Positions 609 to 34,364 of a stretch of DNA of 34,565 nt are shown piece after piece. How positions within the stretch are numbered: the stretch's first letter is position 1; every line of letters starts with the position of its first letter. The notes under the pieces are model-generated. The model did not search any database and had not been told where the DNA came from. It saw only the letters and a list, made by a program, of their open reading frames with translations. The position numbers were made by a program, and so were the translations under genes. The stretch is taken from positions 1 through 34,565 of IMG/VR virus record IMGVR_UViG_3300020045_003669. One strand, written 5' to 3'. Source of the stretch: a virus (taxonomy: Duplodnaviria > Caudoviricetes).

Positions 609-1853
609 ATGTCATTCTTACCGCCAGGCACAGACCCCGGAGAGTTGCCGGCCCCATTTTCACACGCAGTAACAAATGGAAGATTGCAGTTATTAAAGTC
701 TGGTGTAGTAGTGGCCGAGCAGGACGAGTTTGGATCGTGGTTCGCCAGTACGGTGATGACCGGCACCAACAGCTACGAGCTGGGCGAGATTCTTGGCATG
801 GGCGCGTGTGGAGAAAACGTTGCATGGGTAAATTCCATGTCAAAAACAGCTTACTTCCCGGTGTGGTGCGCAGTATCAACAGATGGCACAACCGTTTACG
901 ACACGACCGCCCGCGTACATGGCCCGCTATCCACATCAGAAGCGGCCGGCGCTCCTCATGCAAGCATTACTGGCCCGTACGCCGGCACGGTAACGGCATC
1001 GGTTAATACCTGCTTTTTCAAGGCGGATATTATCCCGGCAGAGTCGTACACTGGCAAACTAAAGTGGCTGTGCGAGTTTGTCGGTACGCCTAACATGGAG
1101 ATTGCGGAATTTAGCATCGATGTTGTTTTGGTGGCCGGCGTAACATATCAGCTTCAGTTCAAATACCCGCTGTGGATTAAGACCGGCCAAACCATTAAGA
1201 CGCAGTTGCTTAAAGAGAGTGGTGACAACCTGCTGTCGAAATATGGCGCGACATTGACGACTCAGCCGTATCGTAAAACGTATTATCGAACATTTACCGA
1301 TCAAGTTATATCAGGAATTCCAACCGGAACGATGATTGATTGGGCTGGCGGGCGCTACGGACTATCTACGCCTGACGGGTATTGGCCGTGCGATGGATCG
1401 ACCGTTAACTATCCTAGTTCAGTATTGCATGGGAAGGTAACGGACGACTGGCGCGGATATGTGTCTGCCGGTGCTCAGCCAGCAAATGCGGACGGATCAA
1501 CGGCGGGGGTTGACCTGTACACACTGGCGCGAAGCAATCTGCCAAATATAAACCTATCTGGCTCAACTTCGTACACACCCAGTGGATCCAATGCTGAAAA
1601 GATCTTCGGCACATACCATTACGCAGCACTTTCAAGCGAAGTGTTTACAAACCCGCAGCCGGGGAGCTCGGGTGGCCGTCCTGTGGTGGCTAGTTATAAT
1701 ATTTCTTCCATCAGCATGAACCACAACCACCCATTTACAGGAACAGCGGCAACCATCTCGCTAAGCAATATCTCATTGAACGGAGGAGTCGGACAGACGC
1801 AAATTGATACACGCCAGAATACTCGATATGTCACCAAGCTGATTAAGCTTTAA
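609..1853 (+). CDS. Fibre-like protein with a C-terminal phage tail-collar domain
   Basis: 414 aa. PTGTMIDWAG...PDGYWPCDG...DWRGYVSAG...TLARSNLP...HNH...YVTKLIKL matches the collar/short-fibre pattern. Confidence 0.7.
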   Translation: MSFLPPGTDPGELPAPFSHAVTNGRLQLLKSGVVVAEQDEFGSWFASTVMTGTNSYELGEILGMGACGENVAWVNSMSKTAYFPVWCAVSTDGTTVYDTTARVHGPLSTSEAAGAPHASITGPYAGTVTASVNTCFFKADIIPAESYTGKLKWLCEFVGTPNMEIAEFSIDVVLVAGVTYQLQFKYPLWIKTGQTIKTQLLKESGDNLLSKYGATLTTQPYRKTYYRTFTDQVISGIPTGTMIDWAGGRYGLSTPDGYWPCDGSTVNYPSSVLHGKVTDDWRGYVSAGAQPANADGSTAGVDLYTLARSNLPNINLSGSTSYTPSGSNAEKIFGTYHYAALSSEVFTNPQPGSSGGRPVVASYNISSISMNHNHPFTGTAATISLSNISLNGGVGQTQIDTRQNTRYVTKLIKL

Positions 1854-1857
1854 CCTT

Positions 1858-2046
1858 TTAGCCACCTTCGGGTGGTTTTTCTTTGTGCCCATCAATAGCC
1901 CGCCTTACCCCTTCGCTAACATTCCCGTCGCCAATCCGCCTAGCCTTCCTTGCTTGCCGGCCAGTTAGTCTTGCCTGATAAGTTGCCATTGCTGAATCCC
2001 CGTCTATTGGCTTTCGTCCTGCCCCATCCCGCTTTCCTCCTCGCAT
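1858..2046 (-). CDS. Small DNA-binding protein (RHH-like, N-terminal RGGKRxGAGRKP)
   Basis: 62 aa, basic N-terminal motif followed by strand-helix-helix (TYQARLT...NVSEGVRRAID). Divergent from the 2147 gene. Confidence 0.6.
   Translation of the reverse strand: MRGGKRDGAGRKPIDGDSAMATYQARLTGRQARKARRIGDGNVSEGVRRAIDGHKEKPPEGG
1861..1884. terminator. Terminator between convergent genes
   Basis: GCCACC-TTCG-GGTGGT followed by a T tract. Confidence 0.75.
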
Positions 2047-2146
2047 TGATTCCGCACCCTATATTCAAATCGTTTGATTTTGCATTGCACCGTCAGTCTC
2101 ATAATTTTACCTGCTGAATGTTCAGCAACTCAAGTGAGGCGTGGCG

Positions 2147-3130
2147 ATGTTCGAGCCAAATTTAACGCTTTCAGATCATGAAAACCGGTCGGCAGAACGA
2201 GCGGAAGAGGTCAAAAGCGAGATTAAGCACGTCGGTCATAAGATCGAAAAATTAAACATTTTCAAAAAAAAGGAAGGTGGTTCGATGGATGCAATTATTC
2301 CGGCACTGTTGGCTGGTGGCAATCAAGGCGGCGGCATGGGTACTGGCCTTGGGGCCGGATTATTGGGCGGTGTATTGGGCGGCGCATTGCTGGGCGGGAA
2401 TGGCTTAGGCGTTAACCGTGCAGCCGCAGTAGCTGGCGCTGAAGGATTTGTTACCCCTGCAAATCTGACTGCAGCCCTTGCTGGCGTGACTGATACCCTG
2501 CAAAACACAACTGTCATTCAGACGCTTGGCGATATCAAAGCATCGGTTCCGCTGGCAGAAGGTCAGGTTCAACTTGCACTGGCCGGCGTTCAGTCCGATT
2601 TGACTACTCAGGCAAACATCAATCAAAGCGCCGTTGTTGCTGGTCAAGCCATTCTGAACAAAAATATCAGCGACTCGATTGCCACTGCACTTGCCGGCCA
2701 AAGCTCGATTAAAGAAAGCATCGCCGCATATGGCGTTGCCAACTTGACCGCAACCAAAGACGCTCAATACGCCATCGTTACTGCGGTCAATGCGGACGGC
2801 GAAAAAACCCGAGCATTGATCACGTCTAACGAGATCTCCAATCTGCAGCGCCAGTTGACAGTTAGCGAGTCCCGCGCACTGGAAGACCGTTTGACTGCGA
2901 GAAATCGTGAAATCGAGATTAATGTAGCCAGTACCAATACAAACACGGCTAACGCAATTCAAGCGCAAAACCAATCGCAAGCGCAGTCTCAGGCCATCAT
3001 TCAGTTAGGCGCTTTGGTAAGCAACCTGGCTGGCGATATCCAAGCCGTTCGTCAATCGCAAGTGACGTTTAATAGCGGCACTATGGTTGGTGCAGGCAAT
3101 CAGACCGCTGCAAATACCAAGGTCGGCTAA
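2147..3130 (+). CDS. Uncharacterised protein: Gly-zipper hydrophobic segment, long Ala/Gln/Thr helical region and Q/N-rich tail (second possible start at 2285)
   Basis: GLGAGLLGGVLGGALLGG, then DGEKTRALI...LQRQL, then NTNTANAIQAQNQSQAQSQA. GAGG precedes ATG 2147 and GGAAGG precedes ATG 2285. Confidence 0.8.
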   Translation: MFEPNLTLSDHENRSAERAEEVKSEIKHVGHKIEKLNIFKKKEGGSMDAIIPALLAGGNQGGGMGTGLGAGLLGGVLGGALLGGNGLGVNRAAAVAGAEGFVTPANLTAALAGVTDTLQNTTVIQTLGDIKASVPLAEGQVQLALAGVQSDLTTQANINQSAVVAGQAILNKNISDSIATALAGQSSIKESIAAYGVANLTATKDAQYAIVTAVNADGEKTRALITSNEISNLQRQLTVSESRALEDRLTARNREIEINVASTNTNTANAIQAQNQSQAQSQAIIQLGALVSNLAGDIQAVRQSQVTFNSGTMVGAGNQTAANTKVG

Positions 3131-3774: not shown

Positions 3775-4440
3775 ATGAAAGTAGCAAAATTGTACATGCC
3801 AAAAACAATGTCTACGAAAGAGATATCTGACATGACCGGCGTTCGACACGATAACGTCATGCGGTCTATTGATGAACTAAACAAGCTATCAATTCTCACG
3901 CCTCAATCTGAGGAGTCAGAATATAAAGCGCGAGGCAAGCCATACAAGTGCTGGAATTTAACAAAGCGCGATTCACTTGTTCTTATTGCTCGCCTATCCC
4001 CTGAATTTACAGCTGCCGTTATTGATCGCTGGCAAGAACTGGAAAACAAAGAGTCACGCCGGCAGCAAGAGGCGGTTTCTCGAAGCATTTCAAAGATTGA
4101 ATTCAAGCCTATGAATACGGCACTGGAGGAGGCTAGAAAAGAACTAGGAAAGGATACGGCCAGCCACCATTACAGCAATGAAGCCGATATGATAAACAGA
4201 ATCGTAACCGGAAAATCTGCTGCACAATTCAGGGTATTTCACGGAATGGAAAAGGATGATTCTGTTCGTGACATGCTTTCCGCCTCGCAAATTAATGCCA
4301 TTGTCGGGCTGCAGCGGGCCAACATGGTATACATTCAAGACGGCATGCTGTTTGATGAACGAAAAGAGCGCTTGCACTCTCTGTACATGAGAAAGTTTGA
4401 TGCGGCTATTGCTGCAGAAATAAACAGACTGGAATCTTAA
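3775..4440 (+). CDS. rha: Rha-family phage regulatory protein
   Basis: MSTKEISDMTGVRHDNVMRSI...LTKRDSLVLIARLSPEFTAAVIDRWQELE is the Rha N-terminal domain. C-terminal region contains HYSNEADMINRIV. Confidence 0.8.
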   Translation: MKVAKLYMPKTMSTKEISDMTGVRHDNVMRSIDELNKLSILTPQSEESEYKARGKPYKCWNLTKRDSLVLIARLSPEFTAAVIDRWQELENKESRRQQEAVSRSISKIEFKPMNTALEEARKELGKDTASHHYSNEADMINRIVTGKSAAQFRVFHGMEKDDSVRDMLSASQINAIVGLQRANMVYIQDGMLFDERKERLHSLYMRKFDAAIAAEINRLES

Positions 4441-4472: not shown

Positions 4473-5081
4473 GTGGATACTACCAGCGCAACACTGACCG
4501 CTGCGCTTGGTGATGCCGTATTTGCTGCCGGTGCGTGGACATTTGGCGGCACTACTGCGCTGCGTGTTGGCGATACTCTGTTCTTGGATATGGCAACCCA
4601 GCAAGACAGTGACCGCGCATGGCAGATGATTGCGGCCAATGGTAACGCCGGTGACTTCAAGCCATTTGGCTCTGACATCGACCAGGCCATTGCTAATGCA
4701 GTCAATGCCGTAAAGGGTAATGCGACCACTTATACCAATCTCGGCTTGGTAGAAGATAAGCTGGAAGGCATTGATTTAACTCTGGCGGCCATGCAGGCGG
4801 CAGAGGGTGCACATGCCAAGACGATCGAGTACCCGGTAACGTGGGGCACTCCCGATGTGAATGGCGTGAAGACTGCGACCATTGATACATCGGCTGATTT
4901 CAATACCCACAAGGTATCGGCTCGCGTGCTAAAGGTTAAGGCCGGCGGATTCTATGAGCAGTTGTCCAGTACCGCGCTGCTGATTGAGTCCAGTAATTCG
5001 GCAGTACGTCTGCAGACTGATTCCGGTTCGATTACTGCGGCAACGCTGGTGGTGATCGTTAGCGGTACGCCTGAGCTGTAA
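4473..5081 (+). CDS. Fibre/appendage-like protein, probably 5'-truncated
   Basis: Frame open from 4401 with no ATG or RBS upstream of GTG 4473. Ala/Thr/Gly-rich structural-type composition. Ends at a terminator. Confidence 0.5.
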   Translation: MDTTSATLTAALGDAVFAAGAWTFGGTTALRVGDTLFLDMATQQDSDRAWQMIAANGNAGDFKPFGSDIDQAIANAVNAVKGNATTYTNLGLVEDKLEGIDLTLAAMQAAEGAHAKTIEYPVTWGTPDVNGVKTATIDTSADFNTHKVSARVLKVKAGGFYEQLSSTALLIESSNSAVRLQTDSGSITAATLVVIVSGTPEL

Positions 5082-5083
5082 AG

Positions 5084-5115
5084 AAAAAGCCCCGCTGAGT
5101 GCGGGGCTTGTTTTT
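5084..5115. terminator. Bidirectional terminator
   Basis: AAGCCCCGC-TGAGT-GCGGGGCTT flanked by A and T tracts, between convergent genes. Confidence 0.8.
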
Positions 5116-5473
5116 AGTTTAATGACATTCCGTTGAAGAATCCGCCGTAGTATGCGATAGAGGAGTACACAAAAACTGCATATGTCATTCCATTAAACAC
5201 AGACATTTTATGCGGAATAAATTCTCTTTTTCCGAATTTGACCTCAAAAATACTAATAATAAAAATCACGCCAAAAATTAGAACAACATATTGAGGCCAC
5301 GAAAAGGAAGAAAAAAACCCTTGCATGTAAAAGATGAACGGAAAGATTGATAGCTTAAAAAAAGAATTTGCCATGCCTTCTCTCTCCATGGTGCGTTCGT
5401 TATTTAGCCACGAAGAAAGCAGAGCGCGAGTCATTAGAAAAATAAACAATACTTGCCAGAATGTAATAGTCAT
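5114..5473 (-). CDS. AT-rich membrane protein (~4 TM)
   Basis: 119 aa with four hydrophobic Phe/Ile-rich segments. Confidence 0.7.
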   Translation of the reverse strand: MTITFWQVLFIFLMTRALLSSWLNNERTMEREGMANSFFKLSIFPFIFYMQGFFSSFSWPQYVVLIFGVIFIISIFEVKFGKREFIPHKMSVFNGMTYAVFVYSSIAYYGGFFNGMSLN

Positions 5474-5512
5474 TTTTACTGCCTTTTTGGTTGATTAACA
5501 ATTTTACTCGAT

Positions 5513-5803
5513 TTACATCAACAACGCTGCTGCCGTCGATACTCCCAATCCAGCGCCCAGCACATCAGCCGTCAAGTCTTTGTAGCTGAATCCTGATCCG
5601 GATTCGGTGGTGGCATCCTTCAACTCTTTGGCAATTCCCACCAGCATAGATGCCGCAAATCCGCATAAGGCCGGACTTTCCCAGTGAAGTGACCGAGCCA
5701 GTGCGGTAGCAAAAAATGCCATTGATGCACTAAACGCAAAATGCAGAACCTTGTCTTCCCCGTTCCACTTGTCTACTTCTGGCGATGATAGTTTGAATTT
5801 CAT
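5513..5803 (-). CDS. YfiM/DUF2279-like (VanZ-like) membrane protein
   Basis: DKVLHF...GIAKELKD...SGFSYKDLTADVLGAGLG motif. ATG 5803 has a GGAGGAG RBS and overlaps the upstream stop. Confidence 0.7.
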   Translation of the reverse strand: MKFKLSSPEVDKWNGEDKVLHFAFSASMAFFATALARSLHWESPALCGFAASMLVGIAKELKDATTESGSGFSYKDLTADVLGAGLGVSTAAALLM

Positions 5804-6060
5804 ACGTACTCCTCCACTTTTTGAACCAGCCAATAATCTACTTCATTTTTTTTAAGCTCTGATTCCACCTTTTGTAGGGTATATAGCGTTACATCTTCGC
5901 CAATTTCCACGCCCCATCGGTCGGTGCGCTTCTTCTTTTCGACCGATACCACGAAACACAGAGACTCTCGGTTATAAACGACCAAATCACCAGCTACTGC
6001 CGACCCCTGTTCAAGCTCGACCATTTCACCATCATCGTTTCGTTTGTAGTTTAGGGACAT
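5800..6060 (-). CDS. Hypothetical protein, first gene of minus-strand island 1
   Basis: 86 aa, GGAG RBS, downstream of a sigma70-like promoter. Confidence 0.65.
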   Translation of the reverse strand: MSLNYKRNDDGEMVELEQGSAVAGDLVVYNRESLCFVVSVEKKKRTDRWGVEIGEDVTLYTLQKVESELKKNEVDYWLVQKVEEYV

Positions 6061-6092
6061 GTTTCGACTCCGTTAATTTGTTTGATCCATTC

Positions 6093-6139
6093 ACTCTATA
6101 TTATCGTGCCGCGCCCGTCAACAATAGCAATGATACAAT
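6093..6139. promoter_or_regulatory. Back-to-back promoter pair, copy 1
   Basis: Minus strand TTGACG(6121-6116)-N17-TAGAGT; plus strand TGATACAAT (6131-6139). Similar element at 11918-11964. Confidence 0.65.
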
Positions 6140-6164
6140 GGTGAAAATATATCAGGCGCTACCC

Positions 6165-6581
6165 ATGGACATTACTTCCGCAATCATTGTCAGCTTCCGA
6201 AATGCCAAGCAGCCGTTTAGCAGCACCATCACTTATCCAGATGCAATGGTTAAGGAGGCTTTGTGCGAGGCGGATGCGGAGACTGGCGGCAAGGGCTGGG
6301 GCGGTTATCAGGATGAATGCGAGAATTTCAAACAACGCGGCATGTTCTTGTACGCTTGCCATTATCTGGCCGTGCTGTATCCGAACGGTGCAGCAGGTGG
6401 CATGTCAGCCGGCACAAAGGGCGTCGTAGCCAGTAAAGGCGTGGGCGATGAATCAGTGAGTATGTTCACCGGGTCATATGGCAAATTACGCGCCGGGGAC
6501 GAATGGCTGGCTGCTAGCGTATTCGGCCAGCAATGGTTACGCCTACGCCGTCGAGCCGGCATGGGTGCGCGTGCCGTATGA
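6165..6581 (+). CDS. Head-tail adaptor (DUF4054-like)
   Basis: MFLYACHYL...VASKGVGDESVS...WLAASVFGQQWLRLRR pattern. First gene of the neck cluster; start reassigned to ATG 6165. Confidence 0.75.
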   Translation: MDITSAIIVSFRNAKQPFSSTITYPDAMVKEALCEADAETGGKGWGGYQDECENFKQRGMFLYACHYLAVLYPNGAAGGMSAGTKGVVASKGVGDESVSMFTGSYGKLRAGDEWLAASVFGQQWLRLRRRAGMGARAV

Positions 6582-20839: not shown

Positions 20840-20864
20840 CTCCCCGCACACGCGGGGTTTTCTT
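20840..20864 (+). terminator. Rho-independent terminator
   Basis: CCCCGC-ACAC-GCGGGG-TTTT after the tailspike. Confidence 0.75.
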
Positions 20865-20878
20865 TAAATGTCAATATT

Positions 20879-20887
20879 TGATACAAT
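20879..20887 (+). promoter_or_regulatory. Extended -10 promoter of the peptide operon
   Basis: TG-A-TACAAT, identical to 6131-6139, 29 nt before ATG 20917. Confidence 0.55.
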
Positions 20888-20916
20888 CAGCACACAAACA
20901 AAACAGGAAGAGAATA

Positions 20917-21036
20917 ATGCGACCAATTCGCGCAGGTGGACAAGGAAAGACCCGACCAGCACAAGCTTCGGTGCCAGCTCAAAAATCAATCCCCGGTAAA
21001 GATGCTGGCGGCCAAGGCAAGCAGCGACCAAAATAA
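20917..21036 (+). CDS. 39-aa basic peptide with a duplicated AGGQGKxRP motif (not in ORF track)
   Basis: MRPIRAGGQGKTRPAQASVPAQKSIPGKDAGGQGKQRPK*. AGGA RBS, TAATG coupling; the two repeats differ at synonymous codon positions. Confidence 0.75.
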   Translation: MRPIRAGGQGKTRPAQASVPAQKSIPGKDAGGQGKQRPK

Positions 21037-21500
21037 TGATTCCGTTAATCGTGGGGATATCGTGGCTAACTTTAATAAGGCAACGAAATGCCCCGCGGTT
21101 ATATGCGGCTCTGGTATATGCGGCGATCAACACGGCCTGTGAATTCTTTCTTGCAGACACAGGCGTTTATTATTACGGCATCGCAGCAATGGCTGATCTG
21201 CTGATTATGATTTTAACCAGCCAGATCAATCCAATGCCTAGAATGGTCGTAAATCTGCACCGTCTATGCCTAATCAGCATTATTGCAAATGGTATCGGGT
21301 GGCTAATGTGGTTTTTCTACCTACCGCCCGATTTCTACAATGGAATATTCATCGTGCTCTATGCCTGGGCAATCATCATTTTATGCGAGCGTGACCATGC
21401 CGGAGTGGATGAGTTTAGAGCTGATAGCTGGATCAATCACATTCTTGGCCGTGATCGTTCAGGGCTGCGTCATGCTATTAAAAGTGAAGCGAAAATATGA
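21036..21500 (+). CDS. Polytopic membrane protein (~5 TM) of unknown function
   Basis: Five hydrophobic segments and a polar C-tail; coupled to the peptide and to the holin-like gene. Confidence 0.75.
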   Translation: MIPLIVGISWLTLIRQRNAPRLYAALVYAAINTACEFFLADTGVYYYGIAAMADLLIMILTSQINPMPRMVVNLHRLCLISIIANGIGWLMWFFYLPPDFYNGIFIVLYAWAIIILCERDHAGVDEFRADSWINHILGRDRSGLRHAIKSEAKI

Positions 21501-21564
21501 GCATCAAAGACTTATTGACCGATACAAGAGCAGCGAGCGCGGTATCAGGGACAACGGTGACTAG
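21409..21564 (+). CDS. Possible nested single-TM protein (51 aa)
   Basis: MSLELIAGSITFLAVIVQGCVMLLKVKRKYEHQRLIDRYKSSERGIRDNGD*. Clean TM followed by KVKRK; GGAG just upstream with short spacing. Confidence 0.35.
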   Translation: MSLELIAGSITFLAVIVQGCVMLLKVKRKYEHQRLIDRYKSSERGIRDNGD

Positions 21565-21751
21565 TGGTCTGGCTACATGGCTTGATATGGTGCCGAACGA
21601 GATTGGAAAGCTTGCCACGCTGGTTGGTACGGTTTTGTCGCTCGTTATGATCTACGTTTACATACAGAAAAATTCCCGCGAAGCAAAAGAATCTAGCGTA
21701 CAGCTTGAGATCCTAATGCTTGAGCGGGACAGATTGGCCGGCAAAGATTAG
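21497..21751 (+). CDS. Holin-like small membrane protein
   Basis: 84 aa, weakly hydrophobic N-segment, TM LATLVGTVLSLVMIYVYI, charged C-tail. Last late-strand gene. Confidence 0.5.
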   Translation: MSIKDLLTDTRAASAVSGTTVTSGLATWLDMVPNEIGKLATLVGTVLSLVMIYVYIQKNSREAKESSVQLEILMLERDRLAGKD

Positions 21752-21951
21752 CCCTCGTACTCTCCGTGATCAGTCATGAAATACTTGATAAAGCGTTTTG
21801 CCATGCAGGCTAATTCGCACAGCATCCATACGCCACCTGAAAACATAAAGCAGGCTTGCATCCACACGGAAACGCTGTCGATCTGTGGCTGATATCCACT
21901 GACCAGCACGGCCAGCACGAACGCAATCACTGCGATATCTTTTGTTGTCAT
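21748..21951 (-). CDS. Small 2-TM protein
   Basis: MTTKDIAVIAFVLAVLVSG...; start reassigned to 21951 (ATGA overlap). Confidence 0.55.
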   Translation of the reverse strand: MTTKDIAVIAFVLAVLVSGYQPQIDSVSVWMQACFMFSGGVWMLCELACMAKRFIKYFMTDHGEYEG

Positions 21952-22313
21952 GATAAATTCCCCTTTGTTTTTGATGTCGGAACCTTGGTATATACCCAAC
22001 GCGCGTTTTTTCCCTTGGTAGGAATAAACAGATCGTGATACCGAAGCAATGAATTGTAAAGTGTCGTCTGTTTGATTGGCGACGCTAACTTTTTGTTGGC
22101 CTCCACGGCCTGCGGTGTCGTAAACTTTTTCGGCAGCATCGCCAGAATTTCCGCCATCTTTCCGCGTATTTCTTTGTCTACTGCTGCGTCACGCTCCGCC
22201 CGGGTGATTCCGCTATCTCCTGCCGGCCGATCGCTTGGATCGTATTGCTTGGTCAACATAACGCCATAACCCATCAATGCGGCTGCGCGTGGTGGTAATT
22301 GACTGATATTCAT
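21948..22313 (-). CDS. Hypothetical protein
   Basis: Start MNISQLPP at 22313 with GGAG RBS and overlap. Confidence 0.6.
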   Translation of the reverse strand: MNISQLPPRAAALMGYGVMLTKQYDPSDRPAGDSGITRAERDAAVDKEIRGKMAEILAMLPKKFTTPQAVEANKKLASPIKQTTLYNSLLRYHDLFIPTKGKNARWVYTKVPTSKTKGNLS

Positions 22314-31462: not shown

Positions 31463-32308
31463 GTGGAAAAGATGGTCGTTTCATTTTCAGGAGGAAAGAC
31501 TTCTGGATTTATGTGTGATTTTTTAATTAAAAACTACTCTGAAAAGTACGAATTTATTTTTATATTTGCAAACACCGGGCAAGAGCATGAAAAAACGCTG
31601 GAATTCGTGGACCGATGCGATAAGTTTTTTAAATTAAATTTACACTGGGTGGAGGCGGTTACAAGTCCCGTTCACGGGGTAGGGCAGACACACAAGATTG
31701 TTTCATTTGAAACTGCATCAAGAGATGGATATCCATTTGAAAAGTTTATTGAAAAATCAGGAATACCAAATAAATCATATCCCCAGTGTTCTGACCGATT
31801 AAAAACTTTCCCGATAGAGTCTTTAAAAAAAGAGCTGGGACTGGCTGGAGCGCCTCACGCCATAGGGATGCGGGCCGATGAACCAAAAAGAGCAAATTTA
31901 GATGGGTGGAATACTAAAAAATATAACTTAGTTTACCCGTTGGCCCACTGGGTTTTGCATGACAAGATTGACGTTAACAACTTCTGGTTTGACATGCCAT
32001 TTACTCTTGAAATACCAGAGCATCTTGGAAACTGCGTCACCTGCTGGAAAAAGTCAGAAAAAAAACTTATAAACGTAGCAAAAGATAACGAAAGTTTTTT
32101 TGATTTTAATAAGAAAATGGAGGATCTTTATTCTGACGTGAAGCCGAATGACGGCGGAATTCCAAGAAGATTTTTCAGGGGGAATAGAAGAGCAATTCAA
32201 ATAGTAGAGCTATCAAGACTCACAGAAAGACAGGGAAATTTTTTATTTGACGAAGACGCTAATAGTGGCTGTTCTGAGTCGTGCGAAGCTTATGGAGACA
32301 AAAAATGA
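31463..32308 (+). CDS. PAPS-reductase-family (adenine nucleotide alpha hydrolase) protein
   Basis: VVSFSGGKTS PP-loop, FANTGQEH, CSDRLK, GMRADE, YPL, GNCVTCWKKS, GCSESCE. Confidence 0.85.
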   Translation: MEKMVVSFSGGKTSGFMCDFLIKNYSEKYEFIFIFANTGQEHEKTLEFVDRCDKFFKLNLHWVEAVTSPVHGVGQTHKIVSFETASRDGYPFEKFIEKSGIPNKSYPQCSDRLKTFPIESLKKELGLAGAPHAIGMRADEPKRANLDGWNTKKYNLVYPLAHWVLHDKIDVNNFWFDMPFTLEIPEHLGNCVTCWKKSEKKLINVAKDNESFFDFNKKMEDLYSDVKPNDGGIPRRFFRGNRRAIQIVELSRLTERQGNFLFDEDANSGCSESCEAYGDKK

Positions 32309-32493
32309 CAATCATCAATTACGTACAATGGAACCAAGACCGCGCTATCAAAGGCGGCACAATCGCCACGCAGCACCAAGTTAGCCCGACAGCGTTGAGA
32401 TATACCTGCGCCAAGTGCGGGACGTTTTTGGGCCGGCATGACGCTACTCCGTGGTGCCGTTGCGGATCTACGCAGTTTCATTCGGGGCGGTGA
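32305..32493 (+). CDS. Small Zn-ribbon protein
   Basis: YTCAKCG...WCRCGS; start at the ATGA overlap at 32305. Confidence 0.55.
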   Translation: MTIINYVQWNQDRAIKGGTIATQHQVSPTALRYTCAKCGTFLGRHDATPWCRCGSTQFHSGR

Positions 32494-32495
32494 GC

Positions 32496-32999
32496 ATGAA
32501 AGATTTATTCGATTTTAACGACGAAAAAAGAGTGCTTGATCCTTGCTGTGGCAGCAAAATGTTTTGGAAGGATAGGAAAAATAAAGACGCTGTATTTGGG
32601 GATAAAAGAAAGGAGTTCCACACCTTGTGCGACGGAAGGACTTTAAACATAGATCCTGATTTGCTAATGGACTTTACCGAAATGCCATTCCCGAACGAGT
32701 CCTTTAATTTGGTTGTTTTTGATCCTCCGCATCTAACAAGGGCCGGACCAAAAAGCTGGATGGCAGCAAAGTATGGAAAACTATCCGATAACTGGAAAGA
32801 GGATATGCGCAAGGGGTTTGGTGAGTGCTTTAGGGTGCTGGCAGAAAATGGAACTCTTGTTTTTAAATGGAATGAAACTCAAATTAAAACAAAAGAGTTG
32901 CTGTCGTTGTGCGATGTAGATCCTTTGTTTGGGCACTTTACTGGACACAAGGGGTTTACTCATTGGTACGTTTTCATCAAGCCAAAAGGAAAATTTTGA
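32496..32999 (+). CDS. SAM-dependent (probably amino-DNA) methyltransferase
   Basis: VLDPCCGSKMFW (SAM motif), FDPPH, ECFRVL...GTLVFKW. Confidence 0.85.
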   Translation: MKDLFDFNDEKRVLDPCCGSKMFWKDRKNKDAVFGDKRKEFHTLCDGRTLNIDPDLLMDFTEMPFPNESFNLVVFDPPHLTRAGPKSWMAAKYGKLSDNWKEDMRKGFGECFRVLAENGTLVFKWNETQIKTKELLSLCDVDPLFGHFTGHKGFTHWYVFIKPKGKF

Positions 33000-33294: not shown

Positions 33295-33681
33295 ATGTTT
33301 AAAGATATCAAGGTTGGCGATATTGTTTTGATTAAAACGTCAGTGAGCGGAATTGGTTGGAATAGAAAGTACTTTACGCTGCCTTATCGCGTGGAAAAAA
33401 TTACCCCGACTCGTTTTGTTGCCGGAAAAGGAACGTACACAAAAAAAGATGGCCGTCTTTATGGTGGCGATTATAGCGCTGGTTCCGCATCAATTTACGA
33501 TGAAAGCAAAGACCAATCGAAGAAGTACAAAGAATTCATCGCACTAAAACGAGCGCGTAGCGATGCAATACGGGCTGTTGACGGCCTTACTAAAAAGCTG
33601 CGTGATAATTGCTGCATTGATGATTTAAACAAGATCATCGAATTTTGCGCTGCGCTTGAGGATAAAGAGGTTGCCAAATGA
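33295..33681 (+). CDS. Hypothetical protein (N-terminal SH3/beta-barrel-like)
   Basis: IKVGDIV...VEKITPTRF...KKDG. Confidence 0.65.
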   Translation: MFKDIKVGDIVLIKTSVSGIGWNRKYFTLPYRVEKITPTRFVAGKGTYTKKDGRLYGGDYSAGSASIYDESKDQSKKYKEFIALKRARSDAIRAVDGLTKKLRDNCCIDDLNKIIEFCAALEDKEVAK

Positions 33682-34364
33682 ACCTAGTTAAGCTTGACTC
33701 AGTGCAAACCATGTCGTCGCGTGAAATTGCTGTGATGACAGAGAAGGCCCATAGAAACGTAGCAGCCGACATTGAAAACATGTTTTCTCAGCTAGGAAAA
33801 GACAGTGCTGAGTTCTTAGCGGTGTATGTTGGCGATAATAATCAGAAATACCGCTGCTTTAATTTGCCGAAACGCGAAACGCTTATTTTGGTTTCTGGCT
33901 ATAGCGCATTATTGCGCGCTCGTATTATCGATCGCTGGCAAGAGCTGGAGGCCAAACAGGCGCCGCAACTCCCAACTAACTACATCGGCGCGCTGGAAGA
34001 ACTGCTTGCGTCAAAGAAAGCCGAAGCAGCATTGCAAGAGCAGCTAACACTGGCCGCGCCTGCCATTGAATTCGTCGATAGCTTCGTCACAGCATCATCC
34101 GGCAGCATGGGCTTTCGTGAAGTGTGCAAGCTGCTGTCTGTGAACGAGGCCACTTTCCGCAAGTTTCTTGAGTCGCAAAAGATCGTCTACAAGTTACACG
34201 GCTCGAAAATGCCATATGCGAATCACTTGGATGCTGGCCGGTTCGAGGTAAAGGCCGGCGTTAATACTGCGGGCCATGCGTTTAACGCTTATCGCTTCAC
34301 GACCAAGGGTGTTGAATGGGTGGCGGGTGAGTTTGCTAAGTGGAATTTACGGGGTGAGGCATGA
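33678..34364 (+). CDS. Rha N-terminal / KilA-C (ANT) antirepressor-like protein
   Basis: MSSREIA...HRNV...LPKRETLILVSGYS...IIDRWQELE, LPTNYIGALEEL, AAPAIEFVD...PYANHLDAGRFEVK...FTTKGVEW. Confidence 0.85.
   Translation: MNLVKLDSVQTMSSREIAVMTEKAHRNVAADIENMFSQLGKDSAEFLAVYVGDNNQKYRCFNLPKRETLILVSGYSALLRARIIDRWQELEAKQAPQLPTNYIGALEELLASKKAEAALQEQLTLAAPAIEFVDSFVTASSGSMGFREVCKLLSVNEATFRKFLESQKIVYKLHGSKMPYANHLDAGRFEVKAGVNTAGHAFNAYRFTTKGVEWVAGEFAKWNLRGEA

Follow-up and report, generated by a model that had tools for sequence, protein, structure and literature searches.

The unit described here lies behind a tail-spike gene in a window of 34,565 nucleotides, which is a whole virus record (73% complete). 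The features of the unit are listed in Table 1. The terminator, the extended -10 element, the ribosome-binding site, and the three coupled ORFs of the original prediction were all confirmed from the sequence, the terminator call, and the ORF list. The peptide, 154-aa, and 84-aa ORFs are coupled via TAATG and then ATGA. The reading of these ORFs as a three-gene operon held for the coupling and overlooked a fourth, out-of-frame ORF with a single helix. Conserved among phages, the module comprises four genes, for a peptide, a predicted five-helix membrane protein, a hidden single-helix protein, and a holin-like protein.

Table 1. Features of the module and its control elements in the window
Feature	Position	Strand	Basis
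Intrinsic-terminator-like hairpin and T tail, end of tail-spike gene	20842..20866 (hairpin 20842-20857)	+	Terminator call
Extended -10-like promoter element TG-A-TACAAT	20879..20887	+	Sequence reading; putative activity
Ribosome-binding-site-like AGGAAGAG, peptide gene	20905..20912	+	Sequence reading
39-aa basic leaderless peptide, two GGQGKxR motifs	20917..21036	+	ORF translation; phrog_36947; relatives; synonymous excess
Motif copy 1, AGGQGKTR, Arg before it	20932..20955	+	Sequence
Motif copy 2, D-AGGQGKQR, with Asp-Ala as putative site for the prohead protease	21001..21027	+	Sequence
154-aa membrane protein, about five helices, candidate receptor	21036..21500	+	phrog_15451; AlphaFold2; conservation
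Hidden +1-frame ORF, 55 aa, one membrane helix then basic residues	21397..21564	+	Open frame in relatives
84-aa pinholin-like protein	21497..21751	+	phrog_13707; weak holin PHROG matches; shape

The promoter scanner needs a -35 box; the extended -10 element was therefore unlisted and was taken straight from the sequence. The 25 bases around this element are identical in the window, the related locus L001, and Iodobacter phage PhiPLPE, and the DNA upstream of them differs. A small hydrophobic ORF on the minus strand (21748-21999) converges on the 84-aa gene and shares 4 bases with its end, and no terminator was called there.

The PHROG scan of the window showed tail sheath, baseplate, tape-measure, and neck matches together with lambda-like replication genes. 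The 154-aa membrane protein is 69.5% identical to its PhiPLPE counterpart, and the gene order is the same. These matches, the identity, and the gene order place the phage among the PhiPLPE-like dwarf myoviruses, a group described in PMC3391216. A lysis endolysin or head gene was not found among the ORFs scanned (63 proteins, 49 from the window, some scanned twice). Two anti-repressor-like genes lie at 3775-4440 and 33678-34364, and no repressor or integrase was found among the ORFs scanned. A PAPS-reductase-like gene stands beside a DNA methyltransferase gene (31463-32999) and may form a DNA-modification pair with it. Genes without assignment are inserted amid the structural genes at 609-3130 and 4473-6060, and the second stretch includes a lipoprotein-family ORF (5513-5833, minus strand).

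Membrane proteins of the module

The 154-aa protein has four clear hydrophobic segments and a short N-terminal helix. The AlphaFold2 model predicted five helices at residues 2-116 (mean pLDDT 78), in agreement with the earlier description of about five transmembrane segments. Relatives of this protein were found in 91 phage records. The profile search with the family gave 892 clusters (50% identity) at E up to 0.001 and 460 at 1e-10, and the profile matches listed were all 87-170 aa long. Pfam gave nothing above the cut-off, and Foldseek against the PDB gave no match with E below 0.001, returning generic helical bundles only. The best VIA match was to designed helical bundles (Z 10.8, within the range common for bundles), and the ESM Atlas returned unnamed viral clusters only (score 0.93-0.95). 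The family of 892 clusters is unnamed and has no solved relative. Similar five-helix folds were seen in BFVD for K4JPZ4 (phiCbK), A0A7G9VS16, and A0A385EER3, from Caulobacter and Rheinheimera phages (Rheinheimera barba phage). The 62-92 kb lysis region of phiCbK gave no profile match to the module.

The conservation analysis of 151 sequences showed that Y101 (100%), Y46 (99%), G88 (99%), N85 (98%), W92 (89%), D54 (80%), and H35 (79%) are maintained in the family. Y95 and N102 are also conserved, in the same predicted periplasmic half. Lys and Arg are concentrated in loops 1 and 3 and the tail, and acidic residues lie in loops 2 and 4; by the positive-inside rule, loops 2 and 4 are therefore predicted to face out. 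The conserved H35, Y46, D54, N85, W92, Y95, Y101, and N102 are predicted to lie in the periplasmic half. The outward face is acidic and aromatic and would thus suit a basic ligand. Its predicted periplasmic position favours an outside signal over a peptide accumulating in the cytoplasm. Processing of the AgrB/AgrD type was considered and dropped, because an invariant Cys is absent and His35 is conserved in just 79%.

The membrane protein of the isolated phage pKp383 is without most of helix 5, which counts against the proposed kin-sensing function. The loss is due to an in-frame deletion in pKp383 (locus L018:1989-2384), and P0033 has lost most of helix 5 in this way too. In P0034, listed with L018, P0033, and P0035, the membrane protein is fused to the hidden ORF at a short repeat.

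The hidden ORF spans the junction of the 154-aa and 84-aa genes, overlapping the last part of the former and the first part of the latter, and 21391 and 21409 are other possible starts. The frame was open with a hydrophobic segment in 33/33 loci checked (hydropathy at least 2.0 in 32). A start codon closely precedes the segment, often behind an AG-rich site. It was also present in 36 further loci (4 duplicates), in one of which it is cut by the contig end. In the overlap, ten pairs from the G015 clade, which are not independent of one another, had 40 synonymous and 68 non-synonymous changes in the hidden frame and 14 and 120 in the membrane-protein frame. The hidden ORF is a gene overlooked by annotation.

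The 84-aa protein has a first segment rich in Gly, Ala, Ser, and Thr, one strong membrane helix (hydropathy peak 36-57), and a charged tail. Its relatives occur in 90 phage records, largely in the same genera as the membrane-protein relatives. The family alignment fits the pinholin shape, with two membrane segments of which the first is weakly hydrophobic and Gly/Ala-rich. Pfam gave nothing above the cut-off. The hhalign comparison of the family with the DLP12 lysis protein EssD, represented by one sequence, gave a probability of 7.4% over 19 columns and was not significant. The best holin PHROG matches were also weak (phrog_4237 in 7/14 members, best E 0.0011). The term holin-like in the original prediction is supported by shape and context, but profile support for it is weak. 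The protein resembles those of pinholin/SAR systems (phage 21 S, DLP12 EssD) in its first segment, its strong second helix, and its charged tail, and it often accompanies SAR-type endolysins. The module differs from these systems by two extra membrane proteins and a peptide, and by the EssD alignment.

The peptide and the head scaffold

The 39-aa peptide contains 9 K/R and 1 D and lacks a hydrophobic stretch. Its two repeats are AGGQGKTRP and AGGQGKQRP. The pattern GGxG[KR]xR occurs twice in the six frames of the window, both times inside the peptide, and in 30 first-order Markov resamplings it averaged 0.1 occurrences and never exceeded 1. The peptide falls in phrog_36947, a PHROG listed under unknown function, and Pfam gave nothing above the cut-off. 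The peptide had been called unannotated, which is true for PhiPLPE; it is a hypothetical CDS in AeroV_348, PEi21, phiA005, and pKp383, and the PHROG itself is an existing entry. In PhiPLPE (L002:3890-4001), a frame change at a run of A separates the peptide's two motif copies; it may be real or a sequencing error, and the annotated gp66 reads through this frame-split peptide.

A basic peptide was found upstream in 14/16 other loci first read (15 isolates and L001), and most of these peptides carry GG[RNQK]G[KR]xR. The jedunavirus variants (DAGGA[CN]VKPR and DAGGAKVKRR) and the Vibrio 367.14 variant (GGRGQQR) were scored by eye and fall outside the strict motif pattern. Among 36 more loci (4 duplicates), 33 had the peptide directly upstream; L149 and L160 were without an upstream motif peptide, and L173 was without upstream DNA. 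The peptides compared hold one to three motif copies, and spacer lengths vary. The relatives' loci carry both the upstream peptide and the downstream holin-like gene, an association on which the original prediction had staked itself beforehand, and the ORFs of the module are conserved jointly.

Most close peptide pairs showed a synonymous excess. The synonymous to non-synonymous counts were 11:8 for the window and L001, 17:1 for L120 and L122, and 9:0 for L018 and L121; a few pairs showed no such excess (4:10, 1:3). Judged from these counts, the peptide is under coding selection and the predicted peptide gene stands. In G045 (L174:1456-1545), the peptide is encoded on the other strand, beyond the downstream end of the module and converging on it; the peptide therefore probably acts in trans.

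Two genomes count against a signalling reading of the peptide. G038, a complete genome, has all three membrane genes, and a recognisable motif is absent in six frames. G046 (L160:2876-2980) has a divergent module whose upstream basic peptide is without GG and carries a repeated PMKGR instead, possibly a second signal type. The original reading as a peptide-sensing or lysis-control system is partly supported: the motif tracks the membrane gene, even inside another protein, but G038 is without it.

This other protein is a head protease-scaffold of the DUF2213 family. The DNA-pattern search for AGGNGKQR gave 3 matches, 1 in a free peptide and 2 in the acidic tail of DUF2213 scaffolds. In both genomes with scaffold matches, the module is present and the peptide gene is absent. 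The isolates CP-T1 and KsaM-C1, which are without the peptide, also carry the motif inside the scaffold. The motif was found in 6 of 80 scaffold loci. The genomes of 40 of the 80 loci, mostly the longer and less redundant ones, were searched for the module, and 13 carry it.

The 23 module-bearing DUF2213 genomes were divided into four states: free peptide only (14, counting G014 despite its divergent motif VGGKSR), scaffold only (7: CP-T1, KsaM-C1, G001, G002, G005, G006, and G007), both (PEAT2, with the same variant AGGANVKPR in peptide and scaffold), and neither (G038). The scaffold motif was found in 0/24 module-less relatives with a readable scaffold tail; these belong to 27 module-less genomes, 7 of them under 90% complete, classed by a fast first look that may miss distant module copies. 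The Fisher test of the swap gave p 9e-4 (run with 27 instead of 24) and 2.5e-4, and the clade-collapsed p of 0.19 was not significant. The tree of 40 proteases showed that the scaffold state needs 3-4 changes, 3 of them forced by well-supported branches. The membrane-protein tree is compatible with one origin of the scaffold state. The single-protein scan for the scaffold gave no match.

The DUF2213 domain has a predicted protease fold similar to the T4 gp21 prohead protease (5jbl, E 2e-4, TM 0.51/0.59). H81 and S133 are invariant in 30 sequences and may be the catalytic pair. The analysis of 72 scaffold tails showed a modest enrichment of Asp-Ser (2.3x) and Asp-Ala (1.3x), and the scaffold-tail motif sits between Asp-Ala/Met and (Gly)-Asp sites. 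Asp precedes the motif (at least one Asp-x-Gly-Gly) in 21/22 motif-bearing DUF2213 genomes and in 0/21 motif-bearing records where DUF2213 was not found (7 + 14). We speculate that cleavage takes place at Asp-Ala in the DUF2213 clade. The Asp is limited to DUF2213 phages, which indicates that the family as a whole does not share a single processing route. The idea that an N-terminal AGG is always freed by a cut after Asp was rejected as a general rule, because in phages without detectable DUF2213 (among them a set of 15 records, 8 at least 90% complete) the residue before the motif is A, C, T, S, N, E, G, V, I, or M. In Pa193 gp24, a solved DUF2213 relative, a fragment stays in mature virions according to PMC11456595. 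No description of cleavage after Asp or of DUF2213 cleavage specificity was found in the literature searched, which lay mostly outside subscription papers. The major capsid genes in L022, L024, L030, and L011 encode Asp-Ala-Gly(-Gly) about 30-40 residues from the N-terminus, like the site before the motif.

Lysis genes and distribution

The module is frequently adjacent to endolysin and spanin genes. It is divergent from a SAR-type endolysin and spanins in PEi21, JD001, SBP, pKp383, and KsaM-C1, where the cassette is holin-less, and it lies behind an endolysin in CP-T1 and many marine loci. SAR-like endolysin N-termini were seen by eye in PhiPLPE, PEi21, KsaM-C1, AeroV_348, and the jedunaviruses, and the endolysins of CP-T1 and the marine loci are not SAR-looking. 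The cassette of PhiPLPE, distant from the module, has only a SAR-type lysozyme and Rz/Rz1. PhiPLPE gp15 (L011:5466-6397 with gp16) has a SAR-like N-terminus. The product gp16 is annotated as lysis protein/holin. It resembles an Rz spanin in which a lipoprotein ORF (6063-6365), itself unannotated, is embedded; this leaves the cassette without a holin. For the holin that is missing from the lysis cassettes of PhiPLPE-like phages and jedunaviruses, the 84-aa protein is a candidate. It is not the sole holin candidate in every genome, since AeroV_348 encodes a second one (phrog_1356) and, in CP-T1 and several marine loci, a further membrane gene adjoins the endolysin.

Cultured carriers of the module are Klebsiella, Escherichia, Kosakonia-type, Edwardsiella, Aeromonas, Vibrio, and Iodobacter phages. 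The module occurred in 0/11 proviruses versus 13/29 other records. Two scans of bacterial genomes (GTDB) with exact short patterns did not find it. The provirus count and the empty GTDB scans are as expected of a trait of lytic lifestyle. The record of CP-T1, a module carrier, is labelled as an induced lysogen.

Possible function and alternative explanations

By comparison, the module would work like T4 lysis inhibition and would resemble arbitrium, and it lacks those defining features of both that were compared. In T4 lysis inhibition (holin T, antiholins RI and RIII), a lytic phage delays its holin after superinfection via a periplasmic sensor (bioRxiv 10.1101/2025.11.12.688109 and PMC8385771). 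T is a class III holin whose periplasmic domain is large, and RI, secreted into the periplasm, is believed to sense DNA, whereas the candidate sensor of the module is a five-helix integral protein and the candidate signal is a peptide. PHROG, Pfam, and fold searches gave no T or RI relatives of the module products, and none of the four products is T- or RI-like in size or shape. Arbitrium (AimP/AimR/AimX) uses a peptide precursor with a signal peptide at its N-terminus and a cytoplasmic HTH-TPR receptor, AimR, for lysis-lysogeny control in temperate phages. The likeness lies in a short phage peptide gene beside a putative receptor gene. The module differs in that a signal peptide is absent, the receptor candidate is a membrane protein, and the hosts are Gram-negative; it was seen in phages other than proviruses, and its link is to lysis genes instead of a lysogeny switch. 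The gene adjoining the peptide gave no AimR-type PHROG or Pfam match. The original prediction that the arbitrium precursor and cytoplasmic receptor are absent proved correct, as the peptide has no hydrophobic stretch and its neighbour is a helical membrane protein.

Phage-density sensing in lytic phages has been worked out mainly for T4, with ICP1, N4, CSP1, and BSPM4 as partial cases in the literature searched. N4 (gp63/gp62/gp61) lyses with two membrane genes and a SAR endolysin and displays lysis inhibition (bioRxiv 10.1101/2025.11.12.688109); its genes are likened to the module by description. CSP1_020-022 (PMC13577005) and BSPM4 ORF52 (PMC11657625) are phage genes modulating the holin at high phage density. 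They are set apart by their descriptions, which, as far as consulted, contain neither a peptide ligand nor a five-helix protein and no connection to a scaffold. The module had been predicted as undescribed, and the literature searched, in which coverage of subscription papers was thin, did not describe it. The module is real, widespread, and undescribed in the literature searched. Comparison of genomes supports a peptide signal and shows an unforeseen link with the capsid scaffold; the mechanism is a proposal.

We propose that a peptide from outside the cell binds the membrane protein and thereby holds back the pinholin-like protein, a reading to which we give not far short of an even chance. 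The GGxGKxR peptide would be released or packaged into virions and would arrive in the periplasm from cells lysed nearby or from virions that superinfect. There it would bind the predicted outward-facing pocket of the five-helix protein, which would then delay the holin-like protein via the hidden protein. We infer the role of the hidden protein and a delay rather than a speed-up, and the 84-aa protein would have pinholin activity. The motif is kept exactly, is repeated, is movable to another protein or strand, and is confined to module-bearing genomes, and thus behaves like a diffusible ligand. Its shift into the scaffold where the peptide gene is absent suggests that it is likely a signal for sensing kin phage and delaying the burst. 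Both motif sources, an abundant free peptide and the scaffold presumably cut at head maturation, would end in lysates and possibly virions, and the single conserved pocket-like face is predicted to be outward; both points favour an outside kin signal. T4 heads retain scaffold-derived peptides, and we know of no signalling role for these internal peptides. The kin-sensing reading requires a basic peptide of 30-50 aa to cross the outer membrane, which was counted against it.

In its wider form, the proposal is a peptide communication among lytic phages of Gram-negative hosts in which GGxGKxR, a dedicated multi-copy peptide or a by-product that the prohead protease cuts out of the capsid scaffold, would be read by a periplasm-facing five-helix receptor setting lysis time. 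We put this form forward tentatively, at somewhat less than an even chance. If true, lytic phages would have a widespread equivalent of arbitrium whose ligand derives from the capsid, and the burst timing of these phages could be tunable by peptide. The module brings a candidate ligand short enough to synthesise and, in the free peptide versus the scaffold-embedded motif, a natural experiment, and the signal idea is open to direct test by peptide addition.

The lysis-gene neighbourhood, and G038 with its membrane genes and no motif, would also fit a plain multi-part holin/antiholin unit without signalling, in which the peptide is a fixed cytoplasmic subunit or a co-inherited DNA-binding head-core peptide. 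G/K/R-rich peptides often bind nucleic acid, which counts for this explanation. Separate multi-gene antiholins exist as well (CSP1_020-022, PMC13577005). We nevertheless consider such a unit rather unlikely, because the motif is kept exactly, beyond charge alone, the move between peptide and scaffold is confined to module-bearing genomes (0/24 others), and the membrane protein is predicted to turn its conserved face away from the cytoplasm. The predicted periplasmic face also speaks against an intracellular assembly checkpoint, in which the prohead protease would free the motif from the scaffold or peptide at head maturation and the fragment would license the holin. The sites flanking the scaffold motif, the similar Asp-Ala-Gly sites in capsid N-termini, the predicted DUF2213 protease fold, and the Asp-x-Gly-Gly present at least once in nearly all motif-bearing DUF2213 genomes (21/22) are in line with a checkpoint. 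However, phages without detectable DUF2213 retain the peptide with no Asp, a free peptide that has a promoter of its own is independent of head assembly, and Asp cleavage was not found in the literature searched. A checkpoint is therefore unlikely.

The predicted periplasmic face would equally serve superinfection exclusion or an abortive response, in which the membrane proteins detect an incoming kin-virion peptide and block DNA entry or depolarise the cell, independently of lysis timing. The module has its own sigma70-like promoter, which could fire early, several genomes have a second holin candidate, and in PhiPLPE, VP16C, and CKB-S1 a long distance separates the module from the endolysin. 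Exclusion genes are common in proviruses, but the module is absent from 11/11 of those examined, and it repeatedly adjoins holin-less SAR cassettes; we regard exclusion as quite unlikely. The TAATG coupling in the window would also suit a cis-acting leader, with the peptide controlling translation of the membrane gene only. This is highly improbable, as the motif stands in a scaffold gene many kilobases off in 7 genomes and the G045 peptide is encoded on the opposite strand.
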